In this document: positions 364 through 32,397 of the stretch, piece after piece
Numbering within the stretch: position 1 is the stretch's first letter
Layout: each line of letters starts with the position of its first letter
Program-made: the position numbers and the translations under genes
Notes under the pieces: generated by a model
What the model was told of the DNA's origin: nothing
Databases searched by the model: none
Seen by the model: only the letters and a program-made list of their open reading frames with translations
NCBI GenBank assembly: GCA_004557405.1
Contig: SFDZ01000009.1
Coordinates: 15,014 to 79,013 of the forward strand
From: Bacteroidales bacterium
Lineage (GTDB): Bacteria; Bacteroidota; Bacteroidia; Bacteroidales; Paludibacteraceae
Length of the DNA: 64,000 bases
Reading direction: 5' to 3'

Positions 364-373
364 CGCTGTGTTG

Positions 374-447
374 CGCTCCATGGAGGACTTGAACCTACGA
401 CCCCCTGATTAACAGTCAGGTGCTCTAACCAACTGAGCTAATGAAGC
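374..447 (-). tRNA. tRNA-Asn (anticodon GTT)
   Basis: Reverse complement folds as a cloverleaf: acceptor GCTTCAT/ATGGAGC, D-arm GCTC-AGTTGGTTA-GAGC, anticodon arm CCTGA-CTGTTAA-TCAGG (GTT), variable GGGTC, T-arm GTAGG-TTCAAGT-CCTCC, discriminator G. The T-stem has one U-C mismatch. No encoded CCA. Confidence 0.88.
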
Positions 448-16849: not shown

Positions 16850-18771
<1,922 letters not shown>

Positions 18772-18800
18772 AGACACACATCACCCCTCCGATAACAAAA

Positions 18801-18839
18801 ACGAGCGCTATTGTTCAAAACAGTAGCGTTCGTTTTTTT
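18801..18839. terminator. groEL intrinsic terminator, also the only hairpin available to end the convergent defence operon
   Basis: 10-bp stem ACGAGCGCTA (18801-18810) / TAGCGTTCGT (18824-18833) with one G-U pair on the plus strand, then a T-run at 18833-18839. Read on the minus strand it has one C-A mismatch and is followed by TTTTGTT. Confidence 0.75.
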
Positions 18840-18858
18840 GTTTTGTTTATGCGTGAAA

Positions 18859-19434
18859 CTAATCTAAGGATTCGGGTTCGTCTTCGTCTGTACTTTCAGC
18901 GACAGAAGCATCGAAAGCCAAAAAGACTTCGAGAAAAGCGGTCTCGCGGTAGAAAAAGTTGGGGTCATCAGTCAGTTTGTCCTCCATAAAATGGAACCCC
19001 CAGTTGGCGTATTCCTCCATTGTCTGCATCAGCATATCAACGGCTTTCCGCGGTGTCATTTCGCCTTTTTCAAGAGCGATGAAATCAATATCGGTGCGGG
19101 CGACAAGGGCAGTGAAAATGTACTCACGTAGTTTAGGGTAGGCTTTTCGCCCTTTTACAGAATCCAAATTGCCCCAATACTGGATGGGCTGGCCGAAAGT
19201 CTTGCGTTTTTGCGTGTCTTCTATAAGCGGTCGTTTTTGGTTGAAATACAGCCCTATAAAAAATGCCACAATAAATATTTCATAACCACCGCCAAAGACT
19301 TTGCCTCTGTCTTCGCGTAAAGATGTCGCACCACGACCGTAATCGCAAAAGTTCTTGATGATACTGTCCTCGTATCTCTTTTCCCATTGCGGGTTTCGGG
19401 CTGCCCACAAATCATATATCTTTTCTGCTGCCAT
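18859..19434 (-). CDS. Hypothetical 191-aa protein with an acidic C-terminal tail (last gene of the island operon)
   Basis: ATG 19434, 6 nt after the stop of the SMC-like gene. I recognise no motif with certainty. It may correspond to a small dnd-associated protein family (to be tested). The tail is SVAESTDEDEPESLD. Confidence 0.6.
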   Translation of the reverse strand: MAAEKIYDLWAARNPQWEKRYEDSIIKNFCDYGRGATSLREDRGKVFGGGYEIFIVAFFIGLYFNQKRPLIEDTQKRKTFGQPIQYWGNLDSVKGRKAYPKLREYIFTALVARTDIDFIALEKGEMTPRKAVDMLMQTMEEYANWGFHFMEDKLTDDPNFFYRETAFLEVFLAFDASVAESTDEDEPESLD

Positions 19435-19440
19435 AATTCG

Positions 19441-21615
19441 TTATCTTATTTGTGTAACAATCGTTTGAATGGTTGATAAATCCTTATCGTTGAAAGGCTC
19501 GACTTTCTCAATCCGATAAACAGAACAAGAAAGTTTATTGATTGTATCGAAATCCAATGCCTTTTGTCCTGTTGCCTTGTCGATGTTTAGCAAATCTTTC
19601 GTAACGATAACACATTGCTTGTCAATGGTATCTATCACATTGTAGAATGTATCTTCCTTGAAACCACCGAATGAAGATGTTGGCGCATCAAAAATCAATG
19701 GGTAATCCTGCTCACGTTTCAAAGTTGTGATTTGGGAAATGGCAAACAGAACCGACATATACATTGTTGTCTTCAATGCACCGTTTGGATTCTCAATGCG
19801 TGTGCCGTTGTCGCTGTATAGTTCGATACGTGCGGAATTGTTGATGGTTTTTCTGATTCGGATTATACCGTAGAAGTCGTTTTTGTTCAACTTCTGTAAA
19901 TACTTGTTCGATTCGGTTTCAAGCATTTGCAGGAAGTTGTTGATGTTTTGCTCTTTTGCGTTTGCAAATGCTTTGGTTATTCGTTCAAATGCGGTGTGAA
20001 CACGCTGATAAACCTGTGTCATTGAACTTGTTGGTTCAAGTTGCGACAATTTTTCTTGTATTTCAGCCCTCGCACTCTCCTTGAATTTCAATGTGGTTTC
20101 CAATTCAGAGACACGGCTTTCCGCACGGCTTTTAGCGTCAAAGAAGCCTCTCAAATCGGATATGCTCTTGTCAAGCAGTTCCGCACTTAACCCCGATTGC
20201 ATCAGCAAATCGTTTTGTTCTGTTTCTAATTCTTGCAACTGTTTTTCCACTTCTGCCAACTCGGCTTTTCTTTTAGTGACAAATTCCAAACGGTCGGAAA
20301 TGGTAGTCGCAATCTTTGAAATCTCTTGCTCTGTGTCTCCACTCAATTTGATTTGGCGAGAATGCAATTCATTGATGAATGAATTGGGAAACAGCGGCTT
20401 ATCGTCCTCTTCATTTGTGCCTGAATTTTTATTGGCCTCCGCTGCTATATGGGCAAGATATTCATTCAGTTTGTTGCACATAAACTCGTAAGCCTCCGAA
20501 CCTTTGGGGGCTGGGCGACCGCAGACTTTGCAGATTTCATCGTCAATCATTTCTTTCATTGTAGCCTCATCGGGCAAATTCCACGGCAAAGGAACAGCAT
20601 CATTGGCAAGTTTCTGGATTTTTGAGATAGCCTCACGTTCTCCAGCCTCTTTTGCTCTGCGTTCTGTTTCCTGCTTGTCAAGTCTTCGTTTTTCTTTGCT
20701 CAAAGCAGAGACTTTTGTGGAAAACTCTTTTATGATTGCAGGGAAGGAACGCAGAATCCAATATTCGTCCAACAGATTGGTGCTATACTCGCACGATGAC
20801 CATGCAACCAACTTCGCCCGTTTGTCTTTCAGCCCTTTGATGCGCTCTTTTATGGCTTGGTAGCGTTCCGATGTTTCTTGGTTCTTTTCCAATAATTCCA
20901 ACTTTGAGGAGAACTCGTTGATGGAAACTTTCTTTTGATTAAGTTCCGTTTTGAGGTTCTGAATATCGTTTGTAACATCATTCAGTTGCGTATTCAGTTC
21001 TTTTGCCTGATTAGATACCCTCTTGTCGTTTTGCAATTCTCGGTTTGACGCATTGGCTGATTTCTGTTCGAAATTTGATGTCATTTCTACCAACTCATCA
21101 AATTGTCTGATGCCCGAGAAAGTATCAACCAAAGTTTTCAATGCCGTATCATTGTCGAATACATTGAGTTCATTTTCGCCCTTGAACAAACAATACTTAC
21201 GAATGACAGGCTCGAAACATATATTCAAAAGCCTGTCGCCTGCGGTGAAATGGCGTTCGGCTCCTTCAATGAAATAACCAGAAAATTTGTAACCCCTTGT
21301 GCGGTATTCCGAATCAGATATTCTTTCAAAGGTGAAACTTTTCTCAATCTCCTTCTCGCCGTCGTGCTCAAACGTTATGCTGACAGAAACCTCATCGGAC
21401 TCACCAATTTCCAATTCTGATTTGCGTTTTTCGGAAATGTGTGAATCTTTTCGGTTCTCGCCTGTTGTGTCGAACAGCCATTCCAACGCCTCAAACAAGG
21501 TCGTTTTGCCATCACCATTATCTCCGATTACCAAAGTCAGACCTTTTGATAATGAAAGGTGATTGCTTCCATAGTAACTGCGGAAGTTGTTTATTTTTAT
21601 ATCTTTGATAATCAT
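19441..21615 (-). CDS. SMC/Rad50/DndD-like ABC-type ATPase with a central CxxC (zinc-hook-like) motif
   Basis: 724 aa. N-terminus IKINNFRSYYG...LTLVIGDNGDGKTTLFEALEWLF (Walker A, aa 31-39). About 400 aa of coiled-coil-type sequence with CKVC at aa 362-365, the exact midpoint. C-terminus YPLIFDAPTSSFG (Walker B / D-loop). Confidence 0.75.
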   Translation of the reverse strand: MIIKDIKINNFRSYYGSNHLSLSKGLTLVIGDNGDGKTTLFEALEWLFDTTGENRKDSHISEKRKSELEIGESDEVSVSITFEHDGEKEIEKSFTFERISDSEYRTRGYKFSGYFIEGAERHFTAGDRLLNICFEPVIRKYCLFKGENELNVFDNDTALKTLVDTFSGIRQFDELVEMTSNFEQKSANASNRELQNDKRVSNQAKELNTQLNDVTNDIQNLKTELNQKKVSINEFSSKLELLEKNQETSERYQAIKERIKGLKDKRAKLVAWSSCEYSTNLLDEYWILRSFPAIIKEFSTKVSALSKEKRRLDKQETERRAKEAGEREAISKIQKLANDAVPLPWNLPDEATMKEMIDDEICKVCGRPAPKGSEAYEFMCNKLNEYLAHIAAEANKNSGTNEEDDKPLFPNSFINELHSRQIKLSGDTEQEISKIATTISDRLEFVTKRKAELAEVEKQLQELETEQNDLLMQSGLSAELLDKSISDLRGFFDAKSRAESRVSELETTLKFKESARAEIQEKLSQLEPTSSMTQVYQRVHTAFERITKAFANAKEQNINNFLQMLETESNKYLQKLNKNDFYGIIRIRKTINNSARIELYSDNGTRIENPNGALKTTMYMSVLFAISQITTLKREQDYPLIFDAPTSSFGGFKEDTFYNVIDTIDKQCVIVTKDLLNIDKATGQKALDFDTINKLSCSVYRIEKVEPFNDKDLSTIQTIVTQIR

Positions 21616-21845
21616 ATATTTGATTTTAGAAAATTACTAACCTCGTTGTAGATTTCCCTTTCTGTTGCTTTTTGCTCATTTCGATTGATGATTTGAGCAA
21701 TGGCTTTAATTACAGGAATATCAGAATCCAAAGCGTCTGAAATTGAACTGTAATCATCGGGATTATAGCCATAGAAATTTATAAGCTGCTCATCAGCAAT
21801 CACAGCTTGCAAAATCTTATCTCCGTTGGTTTGATACGTATTCAT
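21612..21845 (-). CDS. Hypothetical 77-aa protein, translationally coupled (ATGA) to the SMC-like ATPase
   Basis: ATG 21845 lies 6 nt after the helicase stop, and its stop overlaps the ATG of the next gene. No recognisable motif. Very AT-rich. Confidence 0.55.
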   Translation of the reverse strand: MNTYQTNGDKILQAVIADEQLINFYGYNPDDYSSISDALDSDIPVIKAIAQIINRNEQKATEREIYNEVSNFLKSNI

Positions 21846-21851
21846 ATTGCA

Positions 21852-24128
21852 CTAATTAAATATGGATAGATTATAATGATTCAATACTTCTTGCAGTTCG
21901 TTGTCGGTATCATTCAGATTCTCTGACAACAAAGCAAAATCACGAACACGCCTCAACTCGCTTTGCACAAAGCTTTTCTCCAAAGCATAACATTCTTCAT
22001 CAAATACATTGTCAGGTATTACGATGAGGTCGTGAATGATGGCAAAACGCTTATCCTTGTGCGTGCGAAGAACACGACCACGGCGTTGAATGAATTGGCG
22101 TGGGTTTCCCGTGCTTGCGCAGAAAATAGCCAGTTCGCTTCGTGGCACATCAACACCTTCATCAAGGCACTTCATTGAGGTAAGCACATCAATGCTTCCA
22201 TCGGCAAACCCTTTGAGCATTGCATCACGGTCTGTCGATTCGGAAGTGAACTGACGGACAATGATATGGGAATCCATATCACGAACAATGCGAGTGAAGT
22301 CGTCAATCAGATGTTCGGTTTCGGGGTCGGACGCGATAGTGTCGGAATGGTCGAAAATATCAGCCTCGAAATTATCGGGCTTGTTGCCTTCGGGAACATA
22401 GACCAACGTGTATTTCAGACTGCCTTTTTCTTCCATACGCTGCCGAACAATTTCCTGAAAAGCGGATAACTTGTTGGCGGCTTTGTGAATGATGCGTTTG
22501 CGTTTCAGCAAAAGCATTTTCAATCGTTCCTGGCTTTCATCGTCACGGAAGCCCATTATTTTGACTATCTTCTTTGAAAGTTCAACATATTCAGCCATCT
22601 CGTTTTCAGTCAGGCGAACAATGTGTGGATAATAGTAATATCGGCACAAAGCCCCATTCTGAATGGCTTCAGCCATTGAATATTCGAAAGTGTAACTGTC
22701 AGAACAGCCAAAGAAATCCATCAGTTTGCGGTTGCCCGTATCGTCAAACTGTCGTTCGGGTGTTGCAGAGAGCCCAATGCGACGCAAATATTTTATGTCC
22801 GAAAGGCGTTGAGCCATCAAGCCACCGCCCATATTGTGAGCCTCGTCAGCGACAAGCAATAGTTTGTTTTTGGGGAATTGGTTCAATTCCATAAAAACAT
22901 TGGAACGGACAAACGAAGCGTAAGTTGATATGATTATGTAAGACAAATCGTTGTCGGCGTTTGTCATTTCAAGTAAGCGAAGATTGGCAACCGCCGATTT
23001 CCAATTGTTATACTTTGAGCAAACTTTTATAATGGTGCTGAAATTAAACTTTTTACATTCAATTTCCCATTGTTCGACAAGTGTAATGGTTGGAACAAGG
23101 ATAATGGCTTTGTAGTAGCCCAACTTGTTGTATATCTCAAGCAGACAGTTCAGTGAGGTAATGGTTTTGCCAGTACCTGTTGCCATTGCGAACAAGCCTT
23201 TCTGTTGGTTGCTCTTCCAATTCTCGAATGCTTGTTTCTGATATTCACGCGGACCAGATTCGTATGGGAAACGAGGCTTGCCAAAGTCAATTGGGGTGAC
23301 TTCTTCGCCTTTGGTCTTGAGTTTTTCAATTTCAACCTCAACTTTGTTCTTGGCTTTCTCCAGTGCCTTAATCACAGATTTGGGCAATGACTTATCAGCA
23401 ATATCCTGTTGGATAAATTTGTACTCATCTTCAAGCAAATCTTTCAATTCCTTGTTTTTGAACGATTCGGCAATATGTGTTTTCACTCTGTCGGTCGGAA
23501 CAAAAACGACATTTTCATCTTTGCCCGTAAAAACAAGTTCAAATTCTCCGCTGATTTTGTTTATTGTAGCAGACGCTGGATTGCCGTCCCAATCGCAGAA
23601 CGCCGTGAGGCTTTCAATGTTGTCAATCAATGCCGACCGTGAAAAGTTGCAAGAGCCATCGAAGCCGACCTTGTTCACGCCATCGCTGAAAATGCCTGTC
23701 TTTGTGTGAGAAATGCCAATGCCGTCTTTGGGTGCAACGATTCTAATATCAAGCCGATTGTTGCGAATGAGCCACGCAAGGCAATCGAAGAAGTGTGCAT
23801 CACGCTCTGAAAGAGTGTTTCTCAGTTTCTCAATGTCTGTAATATCAAAGAAAGGAATTGGCGTGTCAAGTTCTCCGTTGGCAATGGCGTTTTTATCCTG
23901 CTCGGTAAGGATGTCGTTTACAATCAGATTCATACGACCGCCATTATAAAGGAATGAAGCAAAACCATCAGCCAATACATTGATAGCTGAAGAAGAGAAG
24001 AAGCCCAACATCAAATTGAACTGTGTGGCATTACACAGACAATCAGCGAAGAAACCGATAGGCTCCCACTCTGTCCGCGATTTGAAATGGCGGTGTGCTG
24101 GAAATGAGACTTCTTTGAGCATGATCAC
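21852..24128 (-). CDS. PLD-family (HKD) nuclease domain fused to an SF2 DEAH helicase (ResIII-type)
   Basis: 758 aa from GTG 24128 (GTGA overlap with the DGQHR gene) or 756 aa from ATG 24122. HKD motif ISHTKTGIFSDGVNKVGFDGSCNFS. Helicase motif I FAMATGTGKTITS, II LLLVADEAHNMG, III GLSATP, VI FIQRRGRVLR. Confidence 0.8.
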   Translation of the reverse strand: MIMLKEVSFPAHRHFKSRTEWEPIGFFADCLCNATQFNLMLGFFSSSAINVLADGFASFLYNGGRMNLIVNDILTEQDKNAIANGELDTPIPFFDITDIEKLRNTLSERDAHFFDCLAWLIRNNRLDIRIVAPKDGIGISHTKTGIFSDGVNKVGFDGSCNFSRSALIDNIESLTAFCDWDGNPASATINKISGEFELVFTGKDENVVFVPTDRVKTHIAESFKNKELKDLLEDEYKFIQQDIADKSLPKSVIKALEKAKNKVEVEIEKLKTKGEEVTPIDFGKPRFPYESGPREYQKQAFENWKSNQQKGLFAMATGTGKTITSLNCLLEIYNKLGYYKAIILVPTITLVEQWEIECKKFNFSTIIKVCSKYNNWKSAVANLRLLEMTNADNDLSYIIISTYASFVRSNVFMELNQFPKNKLLLVADEAHNMGGGLMAQRLSDIKYLRRIGLSATPERQFDDTGNRKLMDFFGCSDSYTFEYSMAEAIQNGALCRYYYYPHIVRLTENEMAEYVELSKKIVKIMGFRDDESQERLKMLLLKRKRIIHKAANKLSAFQEIVRQRMEEKGSLKYTLVYVPEGNKPDNFEADIFDHSDTIASDPETEHLIDDFTRIVRDMDSHIIVRQFTSESTDRDAMLKGFADGSIDVLTSMKCLDEGVDVPRSELAIFCASTGNPRQFIQRRGRVLRTHKDKRFAIIHDLIVIPDNVFDEECYALEKSFVQSELRRVRDFALLSENLNDTDNELQEVLNHYNLSIFN

Positions 24129-25378
24129 AACGTTATTTCTGATATTCGTCGTTCTGCTTCCTGTAAATCAATATTGAATATCGTCGCATATTTGCTCTTC
24201 ATAGAACTTTTTTCTTTTTCAGTCAAAAGATTTATGTCTATCATTTTAATCAATAGGTAATAAACCAATGACTGATTTCTCATAATCATTTTTTTTGTTC
24301 TTGGATTCCATAAAATCATATCCCAAATATCTGAATGGACACACCGATTCAAATTGGTATAATTTTTTATTATCTCATCAATTGAATTAGTAGTTGTTAT
24401 GGATATTCTTGAGACAGCCTCAACAAATGGCAACAAACCTATTGGGCGGAAAAACAAGTTTCCTCCATTCTCACTAGAACGTAACTCTTCGGCAGGATTG
24501 TTAGAATTGTCATTAATGTAATTATTAATCTCATTAAATGTGGATTTCATACAATTCCAGAACTGTATCAAATAATCATTAAATTCATTGATAATTTCTT
24601 CTTCAGGTCTGTATTTTAGTTTATCATTGATTTGAGAATTATTGTAGGTTTTCCCATCTTTTTGGCTTATAAATGTTTTATATAATACCAAGTGACATTG
24701 ATACAATGTCATAAGCGATGTGAATGCTTCTTTGTCTGATTGTGGCATTGCTTTGCTGTTGCTAATTTTAATTCTATTACCCATAAATAAAGGATAGGAC
24801 TCCAACAATTCACGAGTTACTATAGCAACAATGTCGTCTTCATCAAGAGCAATAATATCCCCTAAACGAACAGGTTTGACATACCTGTTAAGCGTAGAGA
24901 AGATTCTTCTTGATTTTTCCCTGCCTACTGGTGTATTTTGATGACCAATAAGCATCACACTAATGGTTTCTCTGCCCAACTCTTCGTTTTCAATTAATGC
25001 AGCTCTGATTCCTTCAACTCTATGCTGACCATCAACAGGGAATATTTTTTCTTGTCCTGTAAATTCTAGCAATCCGACGTTATGATAAGGATTGTTCTCT
25101 ATTTCAAATCGAACTTCTGTCCACATTGGTTCCCCGTCATAAACTGCAAGAACAAGACTATCAAAAAAACGGTCTTCACGTTTTAGAATGTATTCTTTTA
25201 TCTTGATAAAATTATCTGTAAGAGAACGTTGGATTTGTTCTTTTAAAGAATTTGCAGTGTGTAATTCATCATCTACTTTTCTTACCATTGTACTAATTTG
25301 TCTAAAAGTCAAAGTAGTAGAATAGTAAACGGTATTGCCTATCTTTCCTCTTATGGCAGGTATTTTTATTGCTTCCAT
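24125..25378 (-). CDS. DGQHR-domain protein (DndB-like, ParB/Srx fold)
   Basis: 417 aa. IFPVDGQHRVEGIRAAL (DGQHR at aa 116-120), followed by RRIFSTLNRYVKPV, as in DndB/DGQHR families. About 30% GC. Confidence 0.8.
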   Translation of the reverse strand: MEAIKIPAIRGKIGNTVYYSTTLTFRQISTMVRKVDDELHTANSLKEQIQRSLTDNFIKIKEYILKREDRFFDSLVLAVYDGEPMWTEVRFEIENNPYHNVGLLEFTGQEKIFPVDGQHRVEGIRAALIENEELGRETISVMLIGHQNTPVGREKSRRIFSTLNRYVKPVRLGDIIALDEDDIVAIVTRELLESYPLFMGNRIKISNSKAMPQSDKEAFTSLMTLYQCHLVLYKTFISQKDGKTYNNSQINDKLKYRPEEEIINEFNDYLIQFWNCMKSTFNEINNYINDNSNNPAEELRSSENGGNLFFRPIGLLPFVEAVSRISITTTNSIDEIIKNYTNLNRCVHSDIWDMILWNPRTKKMIMRNQSLVYYLLIKMIDINLLTEKEKSSMKSKYATIFNIDLQEAERRISEITL

Positions 25379-25380
25379 AA

Positions 25381-25905
25381 CTAAAATGCATTAATTGGTT
25401 CTTGGACTTCTATTTTATCTGGTATTTCAGAATTAAAAGGCGGTCTAATCGCTCTAATAAGAGCAACCTCATTTTTATCTATTATGTCATTATTCGTTTC
25501 TGGATAATAACGATAAAACAAATAATCTTTCCAATACTTTTTCATTCTTACAATTTCTGTTCTGGAATTATCGGAATCATACTCTTTAGCACGTTTACGA
25601 ATATATTGTTTCCCCTCGGAATAGTGGCATCTTCCAATATATACAATGTATTTTTCAATAAACGGAAGATTAATACCTTTAAGATAAAACATATATACAC
25701 CACCTGTATTCGTCGGTAGATTATTAATATCTTCAGAAACAATGCTACCTTCATAATACTTTATTTCTTTTGACCAATGAGCTTCCTCAACTATGGGATT
25801 AGCATTGTCAATCTTATTGTCAACCCAATGTTTAGGATTGTGATAATAAGTTATATCATATAACTTATCCTCATCATTTTCATTTATGAATGCGTTAATT
25901 CTCAT
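25381..25905 (-). CDS. GIY-YIG-like nuclease domain protein
   Basis: ORF 25381..26010 trimmed to ATG 25905 (1 nt after the PAPS-reductase-family stop). GGVYMFYLKG ... KYIVYIGRC ... IRKRAKEY ... NEVALIRAIRPPFN reproduces the GIY / YIG / R / E..li....P.fN pattern. Confidence 0.6.
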   Translation of the reverse strand: MRINAFINENDEDKLYDITYYHNPKHWVDNKIDNANPIVEEAHWSKEIKYYEGSIVSEDINNLPTNTGGVYMFYLKGINLPFIEKYIVYIGRCHYSEGKQYIRKRAKEYDSDNSRTEIVRMKKYWKDYLFYRYYPETNNDIIDKNEVALIRAIRPPFNSEIPDKIEVQEPINAF

Positions 25906-25906
25906 A

Positions 25907-27010
25907 TCATATAAAACAATTAGCACACATAATTTCATCGCCAAGAACATCAACAAGCGTTGTTCCTTTGCTTTGCTTGCGGTTTTCTTCCTGACGCTTA
26001 ATAATGTCAAGCTTTATTTGGCGTACACGTTCGGGATTGCATAATTCAGCCAAACTCTCGTTTTGATTCCATGTATAGCCATCTTTTTCAAACTCCATTG
26101 CTTGTCGATATAAATCAGGGTGTTGCTCGTAGAGCCAAATCCATTCTATCTTCTGTTGGAAAAAACAGAAATAGCAACCTGAACGGCTACGGCAATATGT
26201 TCCTACTTTCCCATCTACTTCAAATGGAATTTCCTCATAATATGCTGGAACGCCTACGCCACTTTCTCGAAGCAATCGGAAAATGTCTTCTTTCACAAGA
26301 ACATCAGTGTTGTCAAGCAACGGAAAATCATCCAATTTGCCTACAGGGTAGTCTGTGGTTTTCAAAAAAGCGAACACAACTTTATTGAATAGTTTTATGT
26401 CAAAATCCAACAGGGCATTCAGTTTTTTTGAATAATAAAACTGCTTTGTTATTTGTTTAGTGACAGTTTCCATAAGCTCGTCTTTCATAAAGTTGTTGGG
26501 GCATAGCAAATCGTACAATGAAACAAACTGCTCCAAGTTGTCGTTATGCAACACTTTGTTTATCACATCAAGGCTCCAAATGTTTCTTCTGAAAGGAAAC
26601 ACCGCCTGAATGTTCGGCTTTGACGATATGTAACCGTCGCGGTCCTCGTCGCCACGAATGCCAACGTATGAGATTGCCAAATCGTCGCCAACATACTTTT
26701 CAAACTCTGCTAGTTTCATCTTCTGTGTGCACCAGCGAGCTTGAGGCGAAGGCAAGAATCCTCCTGCGGCTTTCAAAAAATGGTGGAACGGTGTGGGTTC
26801 GGAACTGCCCTCGGCCGCCCGCAGTCTTACAATTTTTCCCAAATAGGTTTCGAGCCTTCGGATAAGCACCTCGGTTTCCTCCAACTCACAACCTGTGTCC
26901 GAATTGTAGTATTCAATCTTCAGATTCGGATATTTCTGTTTCAAGTATATGGAAAGAGCGGCGCTATCTTTCCCGCCTGATATTCCTAATATGTGTCTTA
27001 CGTTGGTCAT
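25907..27010 (-). CDS. PP-loop ATP pyrophosphatase of the PAPS-reductase family (SspD/DndC-like)
   Basis: 367 aa. ILGISGGKDSAALSIYL (SGGKDS at aa 11-16). C-terminal cysteine cluster CRSRSGCYFCFF. ATGA overlap with the upstream YhcG gene. Confidence 0.8.
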   Translation of the reverse strand: MTNVRHILGISGGKDSAALSIYLKQKYPNLKIEYYNSDTGCELEETEVLIRRLETYLGKIVRLRAAEGSSEPTPFHHFLKAAGGFLPSPQARWCTQKMKLAEFEKYVGDDLAISYVGIRGDEDRDGYISSKPNIQAVFPFRRNIWSLDVINKVLHNDNLEQFVSLYDLLCPNNFMKDELMETVTKQITKQFYYSKKLNALLDFDIKLFNKVVFAFLKTTDYPVGKLDDFPLLDNTDVLVKEDIFRLLRESGVGVPAYYEEIPFEVDGKVGTYCRSRSGCYFCFFQQKIEWIWLYEQHPDLYRQAMEFEKDGYTWNQNESLAELCNPERVRQIKLDIIKRQEENRKQSKGTTLVDVLGDEIMCANCFI

Positions 27011-28137
27011 CGCTTTTCTTCGCTATCAAGTTCTAATTCTATATCCTCCATTTGTGGCAAAGCCGATTTTACATCCGCAAAAAGTTTTTCCGTTTCGTAT
27101 TGGGCTATACCAAGAGGTTGCGTCACACCACGCAAGGCGAATTTTGCTTTTGTGTCGCTTTTGGTACGACAAAGCAACAAACCTATTGTCGGATTATCCT
27201 CCGATGTCTTAACATATTCGTCCACAGCCGATATGTAAAAGTTCAGTTTGCTGACGAATTCGGGAATAAACTCCACTGCCTTAAGTTCAACCACCACATA
27301 GCAATGCAGTTTCAGATGATACATCAAAATGTCAAGGTAGTAATCATCGCCATCTACGGCCAAATGATACTGCCGCCCTACAAAAGAAAAACCTCGCCCC
27401 ATTTCAAGCAGGAAATCTGTAACTCTTTTTGTCAATTCTTTTTCAATGCTACGTTCATTCTGTAATGCGGCAGAACCAATAAAGTTGAAATTGTAAGGGT
27501 CTTTGAATGTGTGTTGTGCCAAATCGGATTGAATTGGCGGCAATGTATTGATGAAATTGTTGATGGATTTTCCTTTGGCGTATATGTAACCATTGGCGAT
27601 TTGCGCCAACATAACATCACGACTCCAGCCTTCTTGCTCTGTAGCCAGGATATAAAATGCGCGTTCTGCTATATCCTCAACTTTCGGGATTAGTGATATA
27701 TGGTGATACCAAGTGATTTGAGTGAGAGACACTTGAATATGATCTTTGCCTTTTTCTGCCAATTTGGCAAGTGGCACTTGCCAAAATTCAGAATTCTCCA
27801 ATTTGGCAAGCGGCACTTGCAGAATTGGGAAATCAGGATAGGCTTCGGCAAAACGCTTCATATTTCTCAAATTTCTATCTGAGTACCCCTTGTCATCGGG
27901 AAATGATGCAGCCAAATCTTTCGATAGCTGGGCGATAACTTGTGTTCCCCAACCTTGTTCTTTCTGCTTTTTTATGATGTCGGTGCCAATCTTCCAATAC
28001 AGAGCCAATAGTTCGGCATTAACACAGAGCACGGCTTTGTATTTTGCTTGTGCTATCAATGTTACAATATCCTGCCGCCAATTTTCGTAGCCTTCGGGCA
28101 TAAAGCCAGCTTTAATTATGTTTTCTATATCTTTCAT
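27007..28137 (-). CDS. YhcG/DUF1016-family PD-(D/E)xK nuclease
   Basis: 376 aa. N-terminal DUF1016-type helical domain (LYWKIGTDII..Q.EQGWG..VI.QLS.DL...FP...GYS.RNL..M..F). Nuclease core GDDYYLDILMYHLKLHCYVVVELKAVEF. ATGA overlaps on both sides. Confidence 0.8.
   Translation of the reverse strand: MKDIENIIKAGFMPEGYENWRQDIVTLIAQAKYKAVLCVNAELLALYWKIGTDIIKKQKEQGWGTQVIAQLSKDLAASFPDDKGYSDRNLRNMKRFAEAYPDFPILQVPLAKLENSEFWQVPLAKLAEKGKDHIQVSLTQITWYHHISLIPKVEDIAERAFYILATEQEGWSRDVMLAQIANGYIYAKGKSINNFINTLPPIQSDLAQHTFKDPYNFNFIGSAALQNERSIEKELTKRVTDFLLEMGRGFSFVGRQYHLAVDGDDYYLDILMYHLKLHCYVVVELKAVEFIPEFVSKLNFYISAVDEYVKTSEDNPTIGLLLCRTKSDTKAKFALRGVTQPLGIAQYETEKLFADVKSALPQMEDIELELDSEEKR
27759..27820. repeat. 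39-nt in-frame tandem duplication inside the YhcG gene, containing a 23-bp palindrome
   Basis: CCAATTTGGCAAGTGGCACTTGC (27759-27781) and CCAATTTGGCAAGCGGCACTTGC (27798-27820) match at 22/23 with a 39-nt period, encoding QVPLAKL twice. TTTGGCAAGTG-G-CACTTGCCAAA (27763-27785) is a perfect palindrome. Confidence 0.9.
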
Positions 28138-31100
28138 CGCTTCATTTTCTTATTCAATATTTCAAGCAACGCGCAGATTTCCGCATTGCTGTTGCCCGAA
28201 AGTATCGCGTTTATTTTTGCCTCTAACTCCGAAACTCGCTTTTTGTCCTTTTCAGGCAGAATGTATGTCTGCGTTCTGATGCTTGTTCCGCTATTCGTCA
28301 CCATATCAAACGAATAGGCGACATCACTGTCAGAAATTGCTTTCTTTGAAATGTCGGCGTACTTTTCGCACTCGCGAAAAAGGAACACCAAGTCATCGGC
28401 TAACTTATCCTCTTCTTCGTCGCGCAGCGATTCGAGTTTATGTTCCAGAATCGGATAACAAATGGACTGATACCACAATGTGCGGTTGTCATACTCTGCC
28501 ATCACGTGCTGATAGAATTCCTTTTGCTTGGCTGTCAGCAAATGCGTTTTGACATTTGCCAACCGTTGCCTGATTTCCTCAACATACTCGTTGTAGTCGG
28601 CCGATTCAAGCCCAAGTCCGTCAACAAGACGGATTTCAAGGCGGTCGATGAGTTGCGAGTAGCACGAACGCAACTCGCGTATGGCCTTCTGTATCACATT
28701 GCCGTATTCTTCGATGTCGGTGTCAGATTTCGTTTTTTTCGTAAATCCTAAAGCGTCGGGTAAATCTTCGAAAAACGCCTTTTCGGGATCTTTGGCCGTT
28801 GCCAGAATATCGCGGAAGCGCATTGTGGATTTATGCGAGAACTTGCGGGTGTGCTTTGTGTAATCGTTTAACCTTTTGTAGAATAAAAGAAACGGCTTTA
28901 TGGTCTCGATAAAACTCTGCGTTGTAATATTGAACTCATCGCCTAAATTAACAAAGCGACGGTATTGGTTGAAGAAGTCGAGCCGTACGCCGTCCACCTC
29001 AAACGCCTTGACGGCATAGTCGGCGGGGTGCTTCTGCAGCAAATCGAAAAAGAGCATATCCACGTTGGGAATATATGCGCCTCGGTTTGTATCGTACAAG
29101 GCAAAATCCTGCCGCTTGATGAACAGGAACGTCGGTATCCAGAAATCGAGAAAACCTTGTTTCAGTTTGAAAGGCTGTGCTGACAGAATCTTTATCAGTT
29201 CCGATATTTTCCGCTGCTTGCCAACTGTGCTTTTCAGGAAACGCATACTCGCATTCCACAATGTGGCTATGCCATCGTTTGTGGGCGCATCAGCAAAACC
29301 GCTGCCTGTATGTAACCCTGTGTTTTTCAGCAATGAATAATAGATTGTTTTTTCGGGCGGAAATTTATCTTTTTCAAAACCTAAATCTACTTCATCATAA
29401 TGCTCGACAAGGGCGTTCAGATAGTTTTTGCGTGCCGAAGAAATTGCACCACTCAACTTGTGACGGTTGAACAACTCATTGAGCATTACAGGTGTCTCTG
29501 AATAAACTTCATCGCAAACTTTCGAGAGCAGTTTGTTGAAATCTTTATGTGAAGAAACCTTCTGTTTTTCGCCTTTGAAAATCCATACGACTTGATTTTT
29601 GTATGAGAAAAGGTTGTCGCTCACCGCTTTGTTGAGTAGCGTTTCCTCATATTCCTTCAGTCTCTGTATCTCGTTGTATGCTACACGGTCTGCTTCTTTG
29701 TCAATCAGCACTTTTGTCAGAATGTAATCGTATTTCTGAATGCTATACAGATGGTCAATGATTTTTTCGGTATTACTGAAATAAGCATAAATGACAGCGT
29801 GTTCTGTGTTTGCACTTGTTTCCTTGATGGTGTCGAGCGTATTTGCGTTGGCAGAAAAAATCAGCTCTATGTATCCGTCAGTATCACCCGTCGGCGTCAT
29901 GTCAACGGCATTTTCGCGTATTTCATACTCGAAATAACGGGGCGTGCCTTTATGGTAATAGTGAGCCTTGACTGGTGAAATGCGTTTGCTGACGAAGTGC
30001 CGCAAGTCATCGATAAAGGCTATCGGGCGTGCCACTTGAGTACCGGCTTTCTGAATCTCTAATTCCAAATCAATGTCGGTTCCTTCAAAAAGCAAAAGAC
30101 GCTGTTTGTATTCTGCATATCGTATGATTTTGAATCGTTGCAGTTTGCCGATAATATCTACAGCATCCTGCACGTTCATTGTCAAACGTGCATATTCAGC
30201 CATCTGTTCGGGCTTCATTGCAAAACTTGCTATTCCGAACAGATTCAGCAATCCGATAGCCTTCACAATTTTTATGGCATCTGTCATCTGCTCGGCATTG
30301 TTCCAATCCAACCCTTCAACTCTTTCGATAGAAACTTGTATTGAGTTCCAACCCATTGAGTCCATATTGGCATCTTTCAAGTATGAATAGAAGTTGTAAA
30401 CAATGTAGTCATATACGTGTGCCAAGTTGTAGGTCAGATTGGTGGTTGCTGTAAATTCGGACAATGAATTTGATCCGCAAGCAGCAAGGAACGAGAAAAG
30501 CGAGCGTTCGTTTTGTCCGTAACGCTGAATGGCGGCGGTAACAGCAAACGCCGAGAACGAGTCGAGCGGATAAAGTTGTTGTGCCGTTTCTGCGGAAAAT
30601 GCGTTGGAAACAAATTTTGTTTCAATAGCCAACTGATAGATTTGGCTTGCGGTTTCACTTCCTTTTTGCGGCAGGTTGGCATGCAACTGTTGCGAAGCCA
30701 AAAACAAAAGTTGTTCAATGGGTTCCACAAATGTTATTTCCTTGAACCTGCCTTTCACTTTTGTCCATTCGTTCTTCTGCGTTTCGGTCAGATTTCTGGC
30801 GTATGCTCCGAAGTTTTGGTGCAGCGTTGTCAGTAGCAATATATCGCGCGAAGGAACATTGATAAACTCCGCAAACTTCTGAAGAAAATACAACTCCTGT
30901 TCGGGATTGTTTTTGGCGGCGTGTTCCAGCACTTTGCCAAATTCGTCTATCACGATGAGCAAAAACTTATTCTGCTCTTTCAGTTGGTTGTAATACTTTT
31001 TCAACTCATCGAGAATGCTTTGCGACTGTCCGTCCATATTTAGATTTCGTCCCAACAAAGTGGAAAGTTCCATATAGTCGCCGACAATGTTCAGAATCTC

Positions 31101-31388
31101 AAAATCCGCTGTCTGCGAAAGATTTTTCGGATTCAACAGCCTTTTCGTCTTGTTGCCGCGGTTCAAATCCGATTCCAGAGCCAGAAGGAACGAAGATTTC
31201 CCTGTTCCGTATGTACCGATAATCGTAAACGAGTGTATTCCAGAACGAAAGTCGTCAATAATGTTTTGTGCTGCCTTTCTTCCGTTTGGAGTAACAATAT
31301 ATTGGAATTCAGCAGGGAATCCATTTTCAATATTTGCCGATAAGCTAAATCCTTTATTCATAGTAATTGTCCAATACTTGTTTTGCAT
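28134..31388 (-). CDS. Large P-loop NTPase (SspC-like / BrxC-PglY-sized ATPase)
   Basis: 1084 aa (1075 aa if the start is the second ATG at 31361). Walker A GTYGTGKS (aa 58-65), Walker B LLIVIDEFGK, then about 850 aa of mostly helical sequence. It overlaps the DUF4007 gene by 35 nt, or 8 nt from the second ATG. Confidence 0.7.
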   Translation of the reverse strand: MQNKYWTITMNKGFSLSANIENGFPAEFQYIVTPNGRKAAQNIIDDFRSGIHSFTIIGTYGTGKSSFLLALESDLNRGNKTKRLLNPKNLSQTADFEILNIVGDYMELSTLLGRNLNMDGQSQSILDELKKYYNQLKEQNKFLLIVIDEFGKVLEHAAKNNPEQELYFLQKFAEFINVPSRDILLLTTLHQNFGAYARNLTETQKNEWTKVKGRFKEITFVEPIEQLLFLASQQLHANLPQKGSETASQIYQLAIETKFVSNAFSAETAQQLYPLDSFSAFAVTAAIQRYGQNERSLFSFLAACGSNSLSEFTATTNLTYNLAHVYDYIVYNFYSYLKDANMDSMGWNSIQVSIERVEGLDWNNAEQMTDAIKIVKAIGLLNLFGIASFAMKPEQMAEYARLTMNVQDAVDIIGKLQRFKIIRYAEYKQRLLLFEGTDIDLELEIQKAGTQVARPIAFIDDLRHFVSKRISPVKAHYYHKGTPRYFEYEIRENAVDMTPTGDTDGYIELIFSANANTLDTIKETSANTEHAVIYAYFSNTEKIIDHLYSIQKYDYILTKVLIDKEADRVAYNEIQRLKEYEETLLNKAVSDNLFSYKNQVVWIFKGEKQKVSSHKDFNKLLSKVCDEVYSETPVMLNELFNRHKLSGAISSARKNYLNALVEHYDEVDLGFEKDKFPPEKTIYYSLLKNTGLHTGSGFADAPTNDGIATLWNASMRFLKSTVGKQRKISELIKILSAQPFKLKQGFLDFWIPTFLFIKRQDFALYDTNRGAYIPNVDMLFFDLLQKHPADYAVKAFEVDGVRLDFFNQYRRFVNLGDEFNITTQSFIETIKPFLLFYKRLNDYTKHTRKFSHKSTMRFRDILATAKDPEKAFFEDLPDALGFTKKTKSDTDIEEYGNVIQKAIRELRSCYSQLIDRLEIRLVDGLGLESADYNEYVEEIRQRLANVKTHLLTAKQKEFYQHVMAEYDNRTLWYQSICYPILEHKLESLRDEEEDKLADDLVFLFRECEKYADISKKAISDSDVAYSFDMVTNSGTSIRTQTYILPEKDKKRVSELEAKINAILSGNSNAEICALLEILNKKMKR

Positions 31389-32235
31389 CCAACTGCTGTG
31401 TAAACTGCAACTGCCTGATTCCTGCTACATCGCTGTAGGCCAAATAATTAGAATATTTTTCTGATAATATTTTCAGCATATCAATCACTTCCAGATCTGT
31501 CATACAAAATATTAATCCTAATTCGTGCAGAGTGTCGTATGGTATGCTGTTGTCGTTCTCCTCTTTTACCGTCAGCAAAGCAAACAGAAAAATGGCTGGA
31601 ATCACTTGTCGTTTGCCCTCTATGTTAAAGAAGTATCGGCTACGTTTGTCCTCTGAATTTTCCGTTTTATCACTTTGCCTGAGCAAATCCAAATCCATCA
31701 GTAGGGTTGAAAACTCCTCATTTGATTGCGGATTACGTGGTAAACAATAGTTCAACAACAAAACTCCGACATCCTTTTTGACTGTGTTTTCATTAAACAA
31801 ATTCGCTTTGCCCGCTTCAATCATTTTGCGCTTCACAAAATTGACCACTTGTTCTCGTTCGAACAGCCTGCGTTCTTTTTGGAAGTCAATAAAAAACATT
31901 TTGTATAAAGACGCTCCGCCAGTGTAAACTAAAAGGAAATGCAACAACCAAAGAGTCCCTAAATCTTCCGTAAATGGGTCTTTGCCAATATCAGTGCTAA
32001 AAATATACTCCGCAAGCCATTCTGTTTTTGCACCTTTATCCAATCCAAAAACTTTATACCAATAGCGAATAGATGATACCATGTTTTTGCCTACACCTAA
32101 ATCTACTACGGCATTGGGTGAGTTGAAATCTTTATGTGCTGTTACGAAATCATAACCTTTTTTCGTCCACAATGTTTTACAAGGAAATGATTCATGACCT
32201 GAGAATGTGTATGCTTTGTTATTGTGTACATCCAT
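31354..32235 (-). CDS. DUF4007-family protein (SspB-like, phosphorothioation-associated)
   Basis: 293 aa. The N-terminal block YTFSGHESFPCKTLWTKKGYDFV matches my recollection of the DUF4007 signature (F.rHEtF..R..Wl.Kg). As I recall, the family is described as co-occurring with PAPS-reductase genes. First gene of the operon. Confidence 0.6.
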   Translation of the reverse strand: MDVHNNKAYTFSGHESFPCKTLWTKKGYDFVTAHKDFNSPNAVVDLGVGKNMVSSIRYWYKVFGLDKGAKTEWLAEYIFSTDIGKDPFTEDLGTLWLLHFLLVYTGGASLYKMFFIDFQKERRLFEREQVVNFVKRKMIEAGKANLFNENTVKKDVGVLLLNYCLPRNPQSNEEFSTLLMDLDLLRQSDKTENSEDKRSRYFFNIEGKRQVIPAIFLFALLTVKEENDNSIPYDTLHELGLIFCMTDLEVIDMLKILSEKYSNYLAYSDVAGIRQLQFTQQLDAKQVLDNYYE

Positions 32236-32292
32236 AGTGCTTTGTTAGGAATCTCTAATAATAAGGGTATATCCCTTTATTTTTCAATTCCG

Positions 32293-32323
32293 CAAAAATA
32301 CAAAAAAAATGATATATGGCAAA
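32293..32323 (-). promoter_or_regulatory. Candidate Bacteroidota sigma-A promoter of the island operon
   Basis: Minus-strand TATTTTTG (32300-32293) is an exact TAnnTTTG match. TTTG (32323-32320) lies 19 nt upstream. The ATG of the first gene is at 32235. Confidence 0.45.
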
Positions 32324-32333
32324 AATCTTGTAC

Positions 32334-32362
32334 AAAAAAAGTGCAACCCTTGTGGGCTGCAC
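32334..32362 (-). terminator. dnaK intrinsic terminator
   Basis: Minus strand: GTGCAGCCC (32362-32354) - ACAA - GGGTTGCAC (32349-32341), followed by TTTTTTT (plus A-run 32334-32340). It lies 36 nt after the dnaK stop. Confidence 0.8.
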
Positions 32363-32397
32363 TCTCGTGTTGCGTGATAAACTATTGTTTATCCGAT

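Follow-up and report, generated by a model that had tools for sequence, protein, structure and literature searches.

Immunity based on DNA phosphorothioate (PT) modification is usually described as a pairing of Dnd with DndFGH, of Dnd with Pbe, or of Ssp with SspE or SspFGH. Here, we describe a ten-gene island that lies between the groEL and dnaK genes of a Bacteroidales bacterium of the Paludibacteraceae, within a 64,000-nucleotide (nt) stretch of its genome (assembly GCA_004557405.1, contig SFDZ01000009.1, positions 15,014 to 79,013; hereafter, the window). The explanation that we consider probable is that the block is a horizontally acquired PT-based defense island in which an SspBCD writer, a PbeABCD effector, and two filled accessory slots form one operon; the genes are called P1 to P10 in the order of transcription (Table 1). 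The haloarchaeal PbeABCD of the DndCDEA-PbeABCD system (Xiong et al. 2019, PMC6459918) required PT and stopped viral DNA replication, and its genes were published as encoding a helicase/nuclease, a 66-aa protein, an "SMC-like" ATPase, and a 152-aa protein. A later paper (Rakesh et al. 2024, PMC10853773) re-reads these products as an HKD nuclease plus superfamily 2 (SF2) helicase, a small protein, a CxC ABC ATPase, and a DndE cognate, and argues that HKD cuts DNA and that PbeCD scans it. In the SspABCD-SspE (Xiong et al. 2020) and SspABCD-SspFGH (PMC8092258) systems, sspB, sspC, and sspD follow one another in this order and the effector comes directly after sspD; most sspBCD clusters have no known partner (PMC8092258).

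We searched the gene products by profile against the Pfam, PADLOC, and NCBIfam models. Genes P7 to P10 form a predicted PbeABCD cassette that fits the published order and sizes: like the effector of Xiong et al. (2019), it comprises an HKD plus SF2 helicase protein, a protein of 66 to 77 aa, an ABC ATPase of ~720 aa with a Cys-pair hook, and a partner of 150 to 190 aa, and in both systems the four genes stand immediately downstream of the PT-writer genes. P7 matched PADLOC PbeA over the entire profile (E = 0, 1113 bits, positions 1 to 722 of 722), together with ResIII (2.4e-27), DEAD, Helicase_C, NF042964 (3.6e-18), and PLD_Helicase (8.7e-11), while its TIGR04095 score of 411 bits fell below the cutoff of 600. 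Its H141-x-K...GSCN motif is kept in all homologues, distant ones included, and a DEAH motif is found at residue 428. P9 matched PADLOC PbeC (9e-21 and 1e-19) as well as Pfam AAA_15, AAA_23, and SMC_N, with Walker A intact; a weak match of its N-terminal part to a DndD model (6e-11) is the sole DndD match among the island proteins. The hook differs from that of the CxC ABC-DndE system (PMC10853773) in being CxxC in the Bacteroidota clade (all 21 Bacteroidota loci aligned over the column), with CxC appearing in the Devosia and L089 homologues. P8 has a same-position homologue in 19 of 25 related loci with a Pbe module (40 to 83% identity), and P10 homologues invariably follow PbeC in the loci examined. 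The cassette further departs from published PbeABCD in that the proteins in the PbeB and PbeD positions match no models (for P8, none in Pfam, PADLOC, or NCBIfam) and that a GIY-YIG/DndB-like gene pair, P5-P6, is interposed between writer and effector.

In place of the DndCDE(A) writer of the DndCDEA-PbeABCD system, the island has one of the Ssp type, which combines an ORC-like AAA+ ATPase with DUF4007. P1 matched Pfam DUF4007 at full length (5e-69, 233 bits versus a cutoff of 27) and PADLOC SspB (3e-84). P2 matched PADLOC SspC over residues 27 to 1060 (E = 0, 1246 bits), with a secondary, weaker match to BrxC (4.5e-65), and carries a Walker A motif, GTYGTGKS, at residue 58. P4 matched PADLOC SspD (5.6e-86), whereas its DndC and PRK13795 matches were weak, with DndC at noise level; it has SGGKDS at residue 11 and a C-terminal cluster of cysteines (273, 279, and 282). 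No writer gene matched a DndD model in PADLOC or NCBIfam, and the set does not qualify as a DndCDEA writer. The order SspB-SspC-SspD is that of the SspABCD systems, from which sspA is often missing, as it is here, but the GIY-YIG/DGQHR pair and PbeABCD stand where their effectors would be. We found no match to SspE (DUF262 plus DUF1524) or GmrSD for any of the ten proteins in Pfam or PADLOC, searches in which the true SspE of locus L035 scores 6e-285. DndFGH is not present, since no DndF, DndG, or DndH model in PADLOC or NCBIfam was matched, and no SspF, SspG, or SspH name appeared among the matches to PADLOC, a library in which the presence of these models is unconfirmed.

To see how the genes are arranged elsewhere, we collected 80 genome loci via the P6 family, 40 of them the Bacteroidota set, and scored them with the ten proteins and extra queries; tblastn missed the divergent 77-aa gene in some loci, and some cassettes end at a contig end. 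The order SspB-SspC-SspD-P5-P6-PbeA-PbeB-PbeC-PbeD, complete or cut by a contig end, was found in 21 of the 40 Bacteroidota loci. Carriers of the nine genes include Tannerella forsythia ATCC 43037, Alloprevotella tannerae ATCC 51259, Hoylesella pleuritidis, Rikenella microfusus, and a Spirochaetaceae metagenome-assembled genome (MAG). Four more loci read SspCD-PbeABCD-P5-P6, three add SspE (L034, L035, and L051, which carry SspE and the pair), one has SspBCD-P5-P6 alone, and 11 combine P5-P6 with BREX type 4 genes, the pair coming directly after BrxL in 10; L050 yielded BrxP and BrxC alone, encoded on the other strand. When sampled from the PbeD side, loci L109 to L112 showed a seven-gene SspBCD-PbeABCD core with no pair between, and L105 to L107 the order SspCD, a DUF262 protein, a Ser/Thr kinase, and PbeABCD. 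Outside Bacteroidota, SspBCD-P5-P6 is the common form; Ssp, pair, and Pbe are colinear in a Dehalococcoidia genome (L077), and Pbe-like genes are convergent to the pair in Devosia, Sphingomonadales, a gammaproteobacterium, two other Alphaproteobacteria (L089 and L103), a Rhodothermales MAG, and an Acidobacteriales genome. The Ssp-Pbe order, with overlapping or abutting open reading frames (ORFs), is kept in more than 20 Bacteroidota species and recurs in other phyla. In Bacteroidota, cultivable human oral species included, the usual Ssp partner looks to be of the Pbe type.

These comparisons bear on the original prediction, made from the sequence of the window. Its domain calls (DUF4007/SspB, the SspC ATPase, a PP-loop SspD, a DUF1016 PD-(D/E)xK nuclease, GIY-YIG, DGQHR/DndB, PLD plus helicase, and a DndD-like ABC ATPase) were verified. 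Its claim of an unprecedented, non-canonical composition was not borne out: the block is read here as SspBCD and PbeABCD with two filled accessory slots, and Pbe, which it had listed as a different system, corresponds to genes P7 to P10 (PADLOC PbeA, E = 0; PbeC, 9e-21). The ten genes that it had treated as a set recur as nine without the DUF1016 gene, or as seven. The modules themselves are named; we found no paper that names or tests the Ssp-Pbe pairing or the GIY-YIG/DndB-like pair. An Ssp-type writer paired with Pbe, the pair as a unit, and the two exchange slots were not found in the searchable literature, a search that left most subscription papers outside. In one paper, P. tannerae ATCC 51259 is listed among the carriers of ssp, and "modification plus pbe" genomes are counted but not described any further (PMC7464106).

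Catalytic motifs are intact across the cassette (SGGKDS, two Walker A motifs, DGQHR, HxK...GSxN, DEAH, CxxC, and GIY...YIG-R-E-N). The present analysis establishes the families of the genes, their motifs, their conserved order, their modularity, and the status of the block as an island in a hotspot; the PT chemistry, a need of Pbe for PT, and what the pair and the DUF1016 protein do are inferred from published work on Ssp, Pbe, DndB, and SspE. Combined, they suggest a model in which SspB, SspC, and SspD, with a cysteine desulfurase encoded elsewhere, would place sulfur on one strand of host DNA at a short motif, so that single-strand PT would mark self DNA. PbeABCD would be the effector: the PbeC ATPase and its PbeD partner would scan DNA, and PbeA, with its HKD nuclease and SF2 helicase, would block or cut unmarked incoming DNA, with the small acidic PbeB as a putative regulator. 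The pair would most likely act as a second, PT-reading nicking effector or, failing that, as a controller of the PT level, and the DUF1016 protein most likely as a stand-alone back-up nuclease of a kind often embedded in modification-based defense operons.

The GIY-YIG/DndB-like pair is the tightest unit of the cassette: a P5 homologue, detected with a family hidden Markov model, lies directly upstream of the P6 homologue in 78 of the 80 loci. P6 matched Pfam DndB (1.4e-31, 110 bits versus a cutoff of 29) and TIGR03187 DGQHR (104.7 bits versus 58.85), with DGQHR at residue 116, but fails the DndB equivalog TIGR03233 (81 bits versus 328) and is thus a member of the DGQHR domain family only. We also considered P6 as SspF and ruled this out, SspF being a Walker A protein (PMC8092258). 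P5 belongs to a family with no Pfam tag, annotated as hypothetical, of which an exhaustive profile search recovered 323 cluster representatives. G69, Y71, Y89, G91, R105, and Y109 are invariant in this family and E146 and N158 are present in at least 90% of members, columns that constitute the canonical GIY...YIG-R-E-N set. The window protein alone stayed below Pfam thresholds and was unmatched in Pfam, PADLOC, and NCBIfam; among 43 sampled family members, 26 match Pfam GIY_YIG_2 and 15 match GIY-YIG, at best ~1e-6, and the family profile, its motifs in register, matches the N-terminal domain of UvrC (1yd6, E = 0.001). The AlphaFold2 (AF2) model of P5 has a beta-beta-alpha-alpha-beta-alpha topology (predicted local distance difference test [pLDDT] of 70). 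Because a Foldseek search of this model against PDB returned nothing significant (best E, 0.63), the fold call depends on the motifs, the family-wide Pfam matches, and the UvrC profile match.

The modules that the pair follows (Ssp, BREX type 4, or PDC-M33) all have a PAPS-reductase-type (PP-loop) domain. In each of the 40 Bacteroidota loci, the pair comes after Ssp or BREX type 4, and in Dehalococcoidia (L064, 4912-11248; L070, L090, and L091) it follows PDC-M33A/B/C, which may be a further DNA backbone-modifying system, since its C subunit contains an SspD-like PP-loop domain. No writer was recognized beside the pair in five non-Bacteroidota loci (L092, L095, L099, L101, and plasmid L113). 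In most loci with an identified neighbor module, then, the pair accompanies a PP-loop DNA-modifying module. BREX type 4 (BrxP-BrxC-PglZ-BrxL), for which PT synthesis has been demonstrated (PMC12914056), resembles the island further in that SspC is a relative of BrxC and that BrxP has SspD- and SspB-like domains; the island differs in having neither PglZ nor BrxL.

A tentative interpretation is that the pair is an unnamed, phylum-spanning PT-reading effector, a split functional analogue of SspE/GmrSD in which a GIY-YIG nickase replaces HNH. It could then be the cognate restriction partner of many of the sspBCD clusters (~84%) that now count as "orphans," of BREX type 4, and of PDC-M33, and two PT-reading effectors, the pair and PbeABCD, could stand behind one Ssp writer in the island. 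The GmrSD/SspE family likewise combines a ParB/Srx-fold DGQ[HQ]R protein with a small nuclease, GmrS and GmrD also being split, and DGQHR and the DUF262 of SspE/GmrS are homologous ParB/Srx folds (PMC4619093); the pair differs in that its nuclease is GIY-YIG, not HNH/DUF1524, and its ParB-fold partner is of the DndB (DGQHR) type, not DUF262. It is conceivable, if somewhat doubtful, that the pair is instead a regulator or maturation factor of the writer, like DndB for dndCDE, and that it would limit PT density or supply or repair the nick for sulfur insertion. DndB is a known negative regulator of dnd expression (PMC12707154, PMC12914056), and a regulatory role would fit a pair that tracks the PP-loop writer module in most identified neighborhoods and no particular effector, and that can share an operon with a complete effector, be it SspE or Pbe. 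However, a repressor needs no conserved catalytic GIY-YIG nuclease, and at least 25 non-Bacteroidota loci consist of SspBCD and the pair, with no other recognized effector in the operon. The pair also occupies the place of SspE, and its likeness to the split, homologous GmrS/GmrD speaks for an effector as well.

The second accessory slot holds P3, a predicted DUF1016_N plus YhcG_C nuclease (Pfam, 1.6e-55 and 2.7e-38; 131.6 and 187.7 bits, both above cutoffs; PADLOC PDC-S02, 4e-131). None of the 80 related genome loci has P3, which was seen only in L020 to L022 and L024, a pattern that marks it as a putative lineage-specific insertion at the sspC-sspD junction. Since P3 is lineage specific, we take nine genes (or seven) and not ten as the natural unit. 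The 9-nt sequence AAGCGATGA stands at both P3 junctions (28130-28140 and 27003-27013, minus strand), and both ATGA overlaps are kept. The same junction holds a PDC-M31A/B pair in L026 (6497-8375), L032 (6531-8368), and L102. Nucleotide homology (~82%) to a conjugative-element cassette spans 18860-27020, from P10 to the first bases of sspD, and ends at this junction, and the two sides differ in their identity to T. forsythia, with ~54% for SspB and SspC versus 83 to 94% for the Pbe proteins (PbeA and PbeC, 93%; PbeD, 94%). We regard the sspC-sspD junction as a likely recombination breakpoint and insertion slot. DUF1016 genes have been found embedded among the core genes of type I restriction-modification (RM) operons (PMC9881135); P3 is likewise a single PD-(D/E)xK gene of the PDC-S02/DUF1016-YhcG kind inside a modification-based defense operon, the host operon here being Ssp and the published one type I RM. 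No defense activity of the DUF1016 family is documented in the literature searched. A near-identical 23-nt direct repeat within the P3 gene (27759-27781 and 27798-27820, 39 nt apart) encodes a duplicated ...QVPLAKL... peptide.

Several points weigh against the explanation of the island as a PT-based Ssp-Pbe operon. The cassette and its orthologues are known from sequence alone. Profile searches found no sspA or cysteine desulfurase gene in the cassette, and a crude motif scan of the 64-kb window found no S[GA]HK..GP-type motif; IscS often stands in for SspA, and Bacteroidales isolates with sspBCD contain CpsC (PMC12914056). Published Pbe is paired with Dnd-type double-strand PT, not Ssp-type single-strand PT, and Rakesh et al. 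question whether Pbe reads PT (PMC10853773). P8 would be PbeB by position and size only (PMC6459918, PMC10853773); its Devosia counterpart matched Pfam Sp-DndD at just E = 0.11. The PADLOC PbeC match of P9 is moderate, with LmuB nearly as good. Position and size also suggest that P10 is PbeD: it had no match in Pfam, PADLOC, NCBIfam, or PDB, including Pfam and PADLOC at E ≤ 1, and no DndE or PbeD profile matched it; its AF2 model has a pLDDT of 54, which made a fold search uninformative. When it was aligned by hhalign with PbeD-position proteins of other phyla, the match was weak (24.6% probability), with a shared ANxG motif. One member of the P10 family has a precomputed PF27807 tag, a match that our Pfam search did not reproduce. 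That the ten genes form one transcript is suggested by the ORF spacing only, and internal promoters are possible. Finally, linkage does not prove co-function, because the modules occur apart.

The last point leads to the possibility, which we think unlikely, that SspBCD (with or without the pair), PbeABCD, and DUF1016 are mutually independent systems packed into one operon by defense-island dynamics. Each module is found apart from the rest, as when the pair accompanies BREX type 4 or SspE, follows SspBCD by itself, or neighbors an FtsK-like gene trio; DUF1016 is confined to the lineage of the window; the module order is permuted in L039, L040, L045, and L047; the sharply different identities to T. 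forsythia and the homology break at sspC-sspD fit separate histories; and CxC/Pbe systems without PT genes occur according to Rakesh et al. (PMC10853773). Yet the Ssp-Pbe adjacency is kept in more than 20 Bacteroidota species and has been re-created elsewhere in different orientations, both Pbe contexts sampled from the PbeD side are Ssp linked, and the published Pbe activity needed PT (PMC6459918). The original prediction had tied its novelty to the block not being named systems that merely abut and occur independently elsewhere. Occurrence apart was indeed found, but mere abutment does not describe an order conserved in more than 20 species.

The surroundings of the cassette show it to be a 13.4-kb horizontally acquired island. 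The ten genes recur in this slot in a Bacteroidales bacterium MAG (GCA_022783925.1), at 98.4% nucleotide identity, whereas contigs whose GroEL is identical have different cargo in the groEL-dnaK slot: Wadjet JetABCD in L001 and L004, and a six-gene DUF6175 cassette, alone or with further genes, in L002, L003, and L008 to L010 (the extras being DUF5677 and AAA_14/DUF4143 genes in L002 and an HsdR_N/N6_Mtase gene in L010); L007 has yet other cargo. Homology with these sister strains is lost at 18770-18881 on the left, in two of them at 19118, and resumes on the right exactly at 32329. The Wadjet strains retain window positions 18771-19118, including the last ~87 codons of P10 (18859-19118; 11717-11980 in L001 and 7160-7360 in L004), and because they keep this end, the Ssp-Pbe cassette probably held the slot before it was replaced. 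An empty groEL-dnaK junction, proposed earlier as proof of insertion, was not among the identical-GroEL contigs, in which 10 of 10 places were filled; it is therefore the alternative cargo, and not an empty site, that establishes insertion. The claim of a foreign, mosaic block in a variable slot between two chaperone operons is supported, and the slot is a strain-variable defense hotspot. Nine of the genes, moreover, stand amid conjugative-element genes, including TraG and topoisomerase III, in Prevotellaceae metagenome contigs and in assembly GCA_000477535.1 (together, L014 to L019). We consider it very improbable that the cassette has mainly an epigenetic or redox PT role, or is a decaying remnant, with no part in defense: many sspBCD clusters lack known restriction partners and non-defense PT roles have been proposed (PMC8092258, PMC7464106), but the ten ORFs are full length with intact catalytic motifs, a set of four nuclease-type domains and a helicase makes little sense unless DNA is the target, the slot is a hotspot that holds Wadjet in sister strains, and the cassette is cargo on conjugative elements.

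An ORF scan of the window confirmed ten full-length ORFs on the minus strand, spanning 18859-32235, with the sizes predicted earlier; the 174-aa P5 is the ATG-started form (25381-25905) of a 209-aa TTG ORF. The junctions also proved to lie between a 35-nt overlap and a 6-nt gap, as claimed. The sspB/sspC overlap measures 35 nt (8 nt if the sister-strain start is used), ATGA stop/start overlaps of 4 nt join sspC/P3, P3/sspD, and P8/P9, the P6/P7 junction is a GTGA overlap, and the other junctions are gaps of 1, 2, 6, and 6 nt. The promoter motifs were found where they had been placed, directly after the dnaK terminator hairpin: by direct reading of the sequence, TTTG and TATTTTTG are spaced by 19 nt and lie ~57 nt upstream of the sspB ATG, and on the strength of this consensus they make a candidate Bacteroidota-type promoter. 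A sigma-70 promoter scan gave counts at chance level. The hairpin shared with groEL is, as stated earlier, the only strong terminator and would stop transcription in both directions, because an A-run precedes and a T-run trails it; the remaining terminator-like matches were at chance (13 versus 12.5 expected). The GC content is 0.406 in the island versus 0.505 in the rest of the window, with the lowest values in P5 (0.30) and P6 (0.33), and the five earlier hand-counted 60-nt values were reproduced exactly (0.25, 0.30, 0.433, 0.483, and 0.55). The reported lack of mobility features also held: no integrase or transposase family was matched by the ten products in Pfam, PADLOC, or NCBIfam, and searches of the island ends for flanking direct repeats and flanking tRNA genes found none. 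The sole RNA gene detected in the window, a tRNA-Asn (GTT; 373-447, minus strand), is far from the island and was the only Rfam match at gathering thresholds (374-447).

Table 1. Features of the island and its borders (positions in the window)
Feature	Position	Strand	Description
Promoter motifs	32293-32323	-	-33 TTTG, 32323-32320; -7 TATTTTTG, 32300-32293
SspB, 293 aa (P1)	31354-32235	-	DUF4007 at full length; DNA-recognition/nicking subunit of the PT writer
SspC, 1084 aa (P2)	28134-31388	-	AAA+ ATPase of the PT writer
DUF1016_N plus YhcG_C PD-(D/E)xK nuclease, 376 aa (P3)	27007-28137	-	PADLOC candidate PDC-S02
SspD, 367 aa (P4)	25907-27010	-	PP-loop/PAPS-reductase-type sulfur-inserting enzyme
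Divergent GIY-YIG (URI, UvrC-like) nuclease, 174 aa (P5)	25381-25905	-	Unnamed family; first gene of the pair
DndB-like DGQHR (ParB/Srx-fold) protein, 417 aa (P6)	24125-25378	-	Second gene of the pair
PbeA, 758 aa (P7)	21852-24128	-	N-terminal HKD/PLD-type nuclease plus SF2 (ResIII/DEAH) helicase
Small acidic protein, 77 aa (P8)	21612-21845	-	PbeB position; isoelectric point, 4.2
PbeC-like ABC ATPase, 724 aa (P9)	19441-21615	-	Coiled-coil insert; CKVC at residues 362-365, at the midpoint, predicted Zn-hook type
Acidic helical protein, 191 aa (P10)	18859-19434	-	PbeD (DndE-cognate) position
Strong hairpin	18797-18837		19-pair stem; A-run before, T-run after; common to groEL (+) and the island operon (-)
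dnaK terminator hairpin	32329-32365	-	Read from sequence; 32329 is the right boundary of the variable slot

The locus offers candidate partners, which can be tested, for the "orphan" Ssp systems of cultivable Bacteroidota and bears on how PT is read. Its sspC-sspD and sspD-pbeA junctions are slots that exchange small defense genes and alternative gene pairs, and its P5-P6 genes stand for a conserved, uncharacterized nuclease/ParB-fold pair that accompanies PP-loop DNA-modifying modules in different phyla. The locus also bears on gene flow among gut and oral Bacteroidota, since conjugative elements carry the cassette. No new principle is involved: the recruitment of HKD, REase (restriction endonuclease), and URI nucleases to PT neighborhoods in a mix-and-match fashion is already described (PMC10853773).

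Some smaller observations concern the related loci. In the conjugative-element contigs L014 to L018, a 67-aa HTH_3 gene (~4073-4276) lies just upstream of sspB; it is missing from the window copy. The sspD-pbeA slot of L105 to L107 (3270-5323) holds the DUF262 (GmrSD_N, ParB-fold) protein and the Ser/Thr protein kinase mentioned above, which may be a parallel sensor-plus-enzyme pair. Five P10 homologues (P0194, P0222, P0265, P0268, and P0291) bear the NCBI name "glycoside hydrolase family 15," which on PbeD-position proteins seems to be an annotation error that has been passed on. The same trio of small ORFs (~79, 160, and 74 aa) follows the pair in L035 (11250-12189), an Ssp-SspE locus, and in L038 (11298-12237), a BREX type 4 locus. 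On the Ti plasmid pTiK1_93 of Rhizobium sp. K1/93 (L113, 8489-19212), where the NCBI Prokaryotic Genome Annotation Pipeline (PGAP) names the pair genes "hypothetical" and "DndB," the pair precedes two hypothetical genes (~590 and 510 aa) and then a very large FtsK-like translocase of more than 1,800 aa that runs off the end of the fetched stretch. This trio resembles the SspFGH/DndFGH type, and the same plasmid island also has SIR2 and PIN genes.

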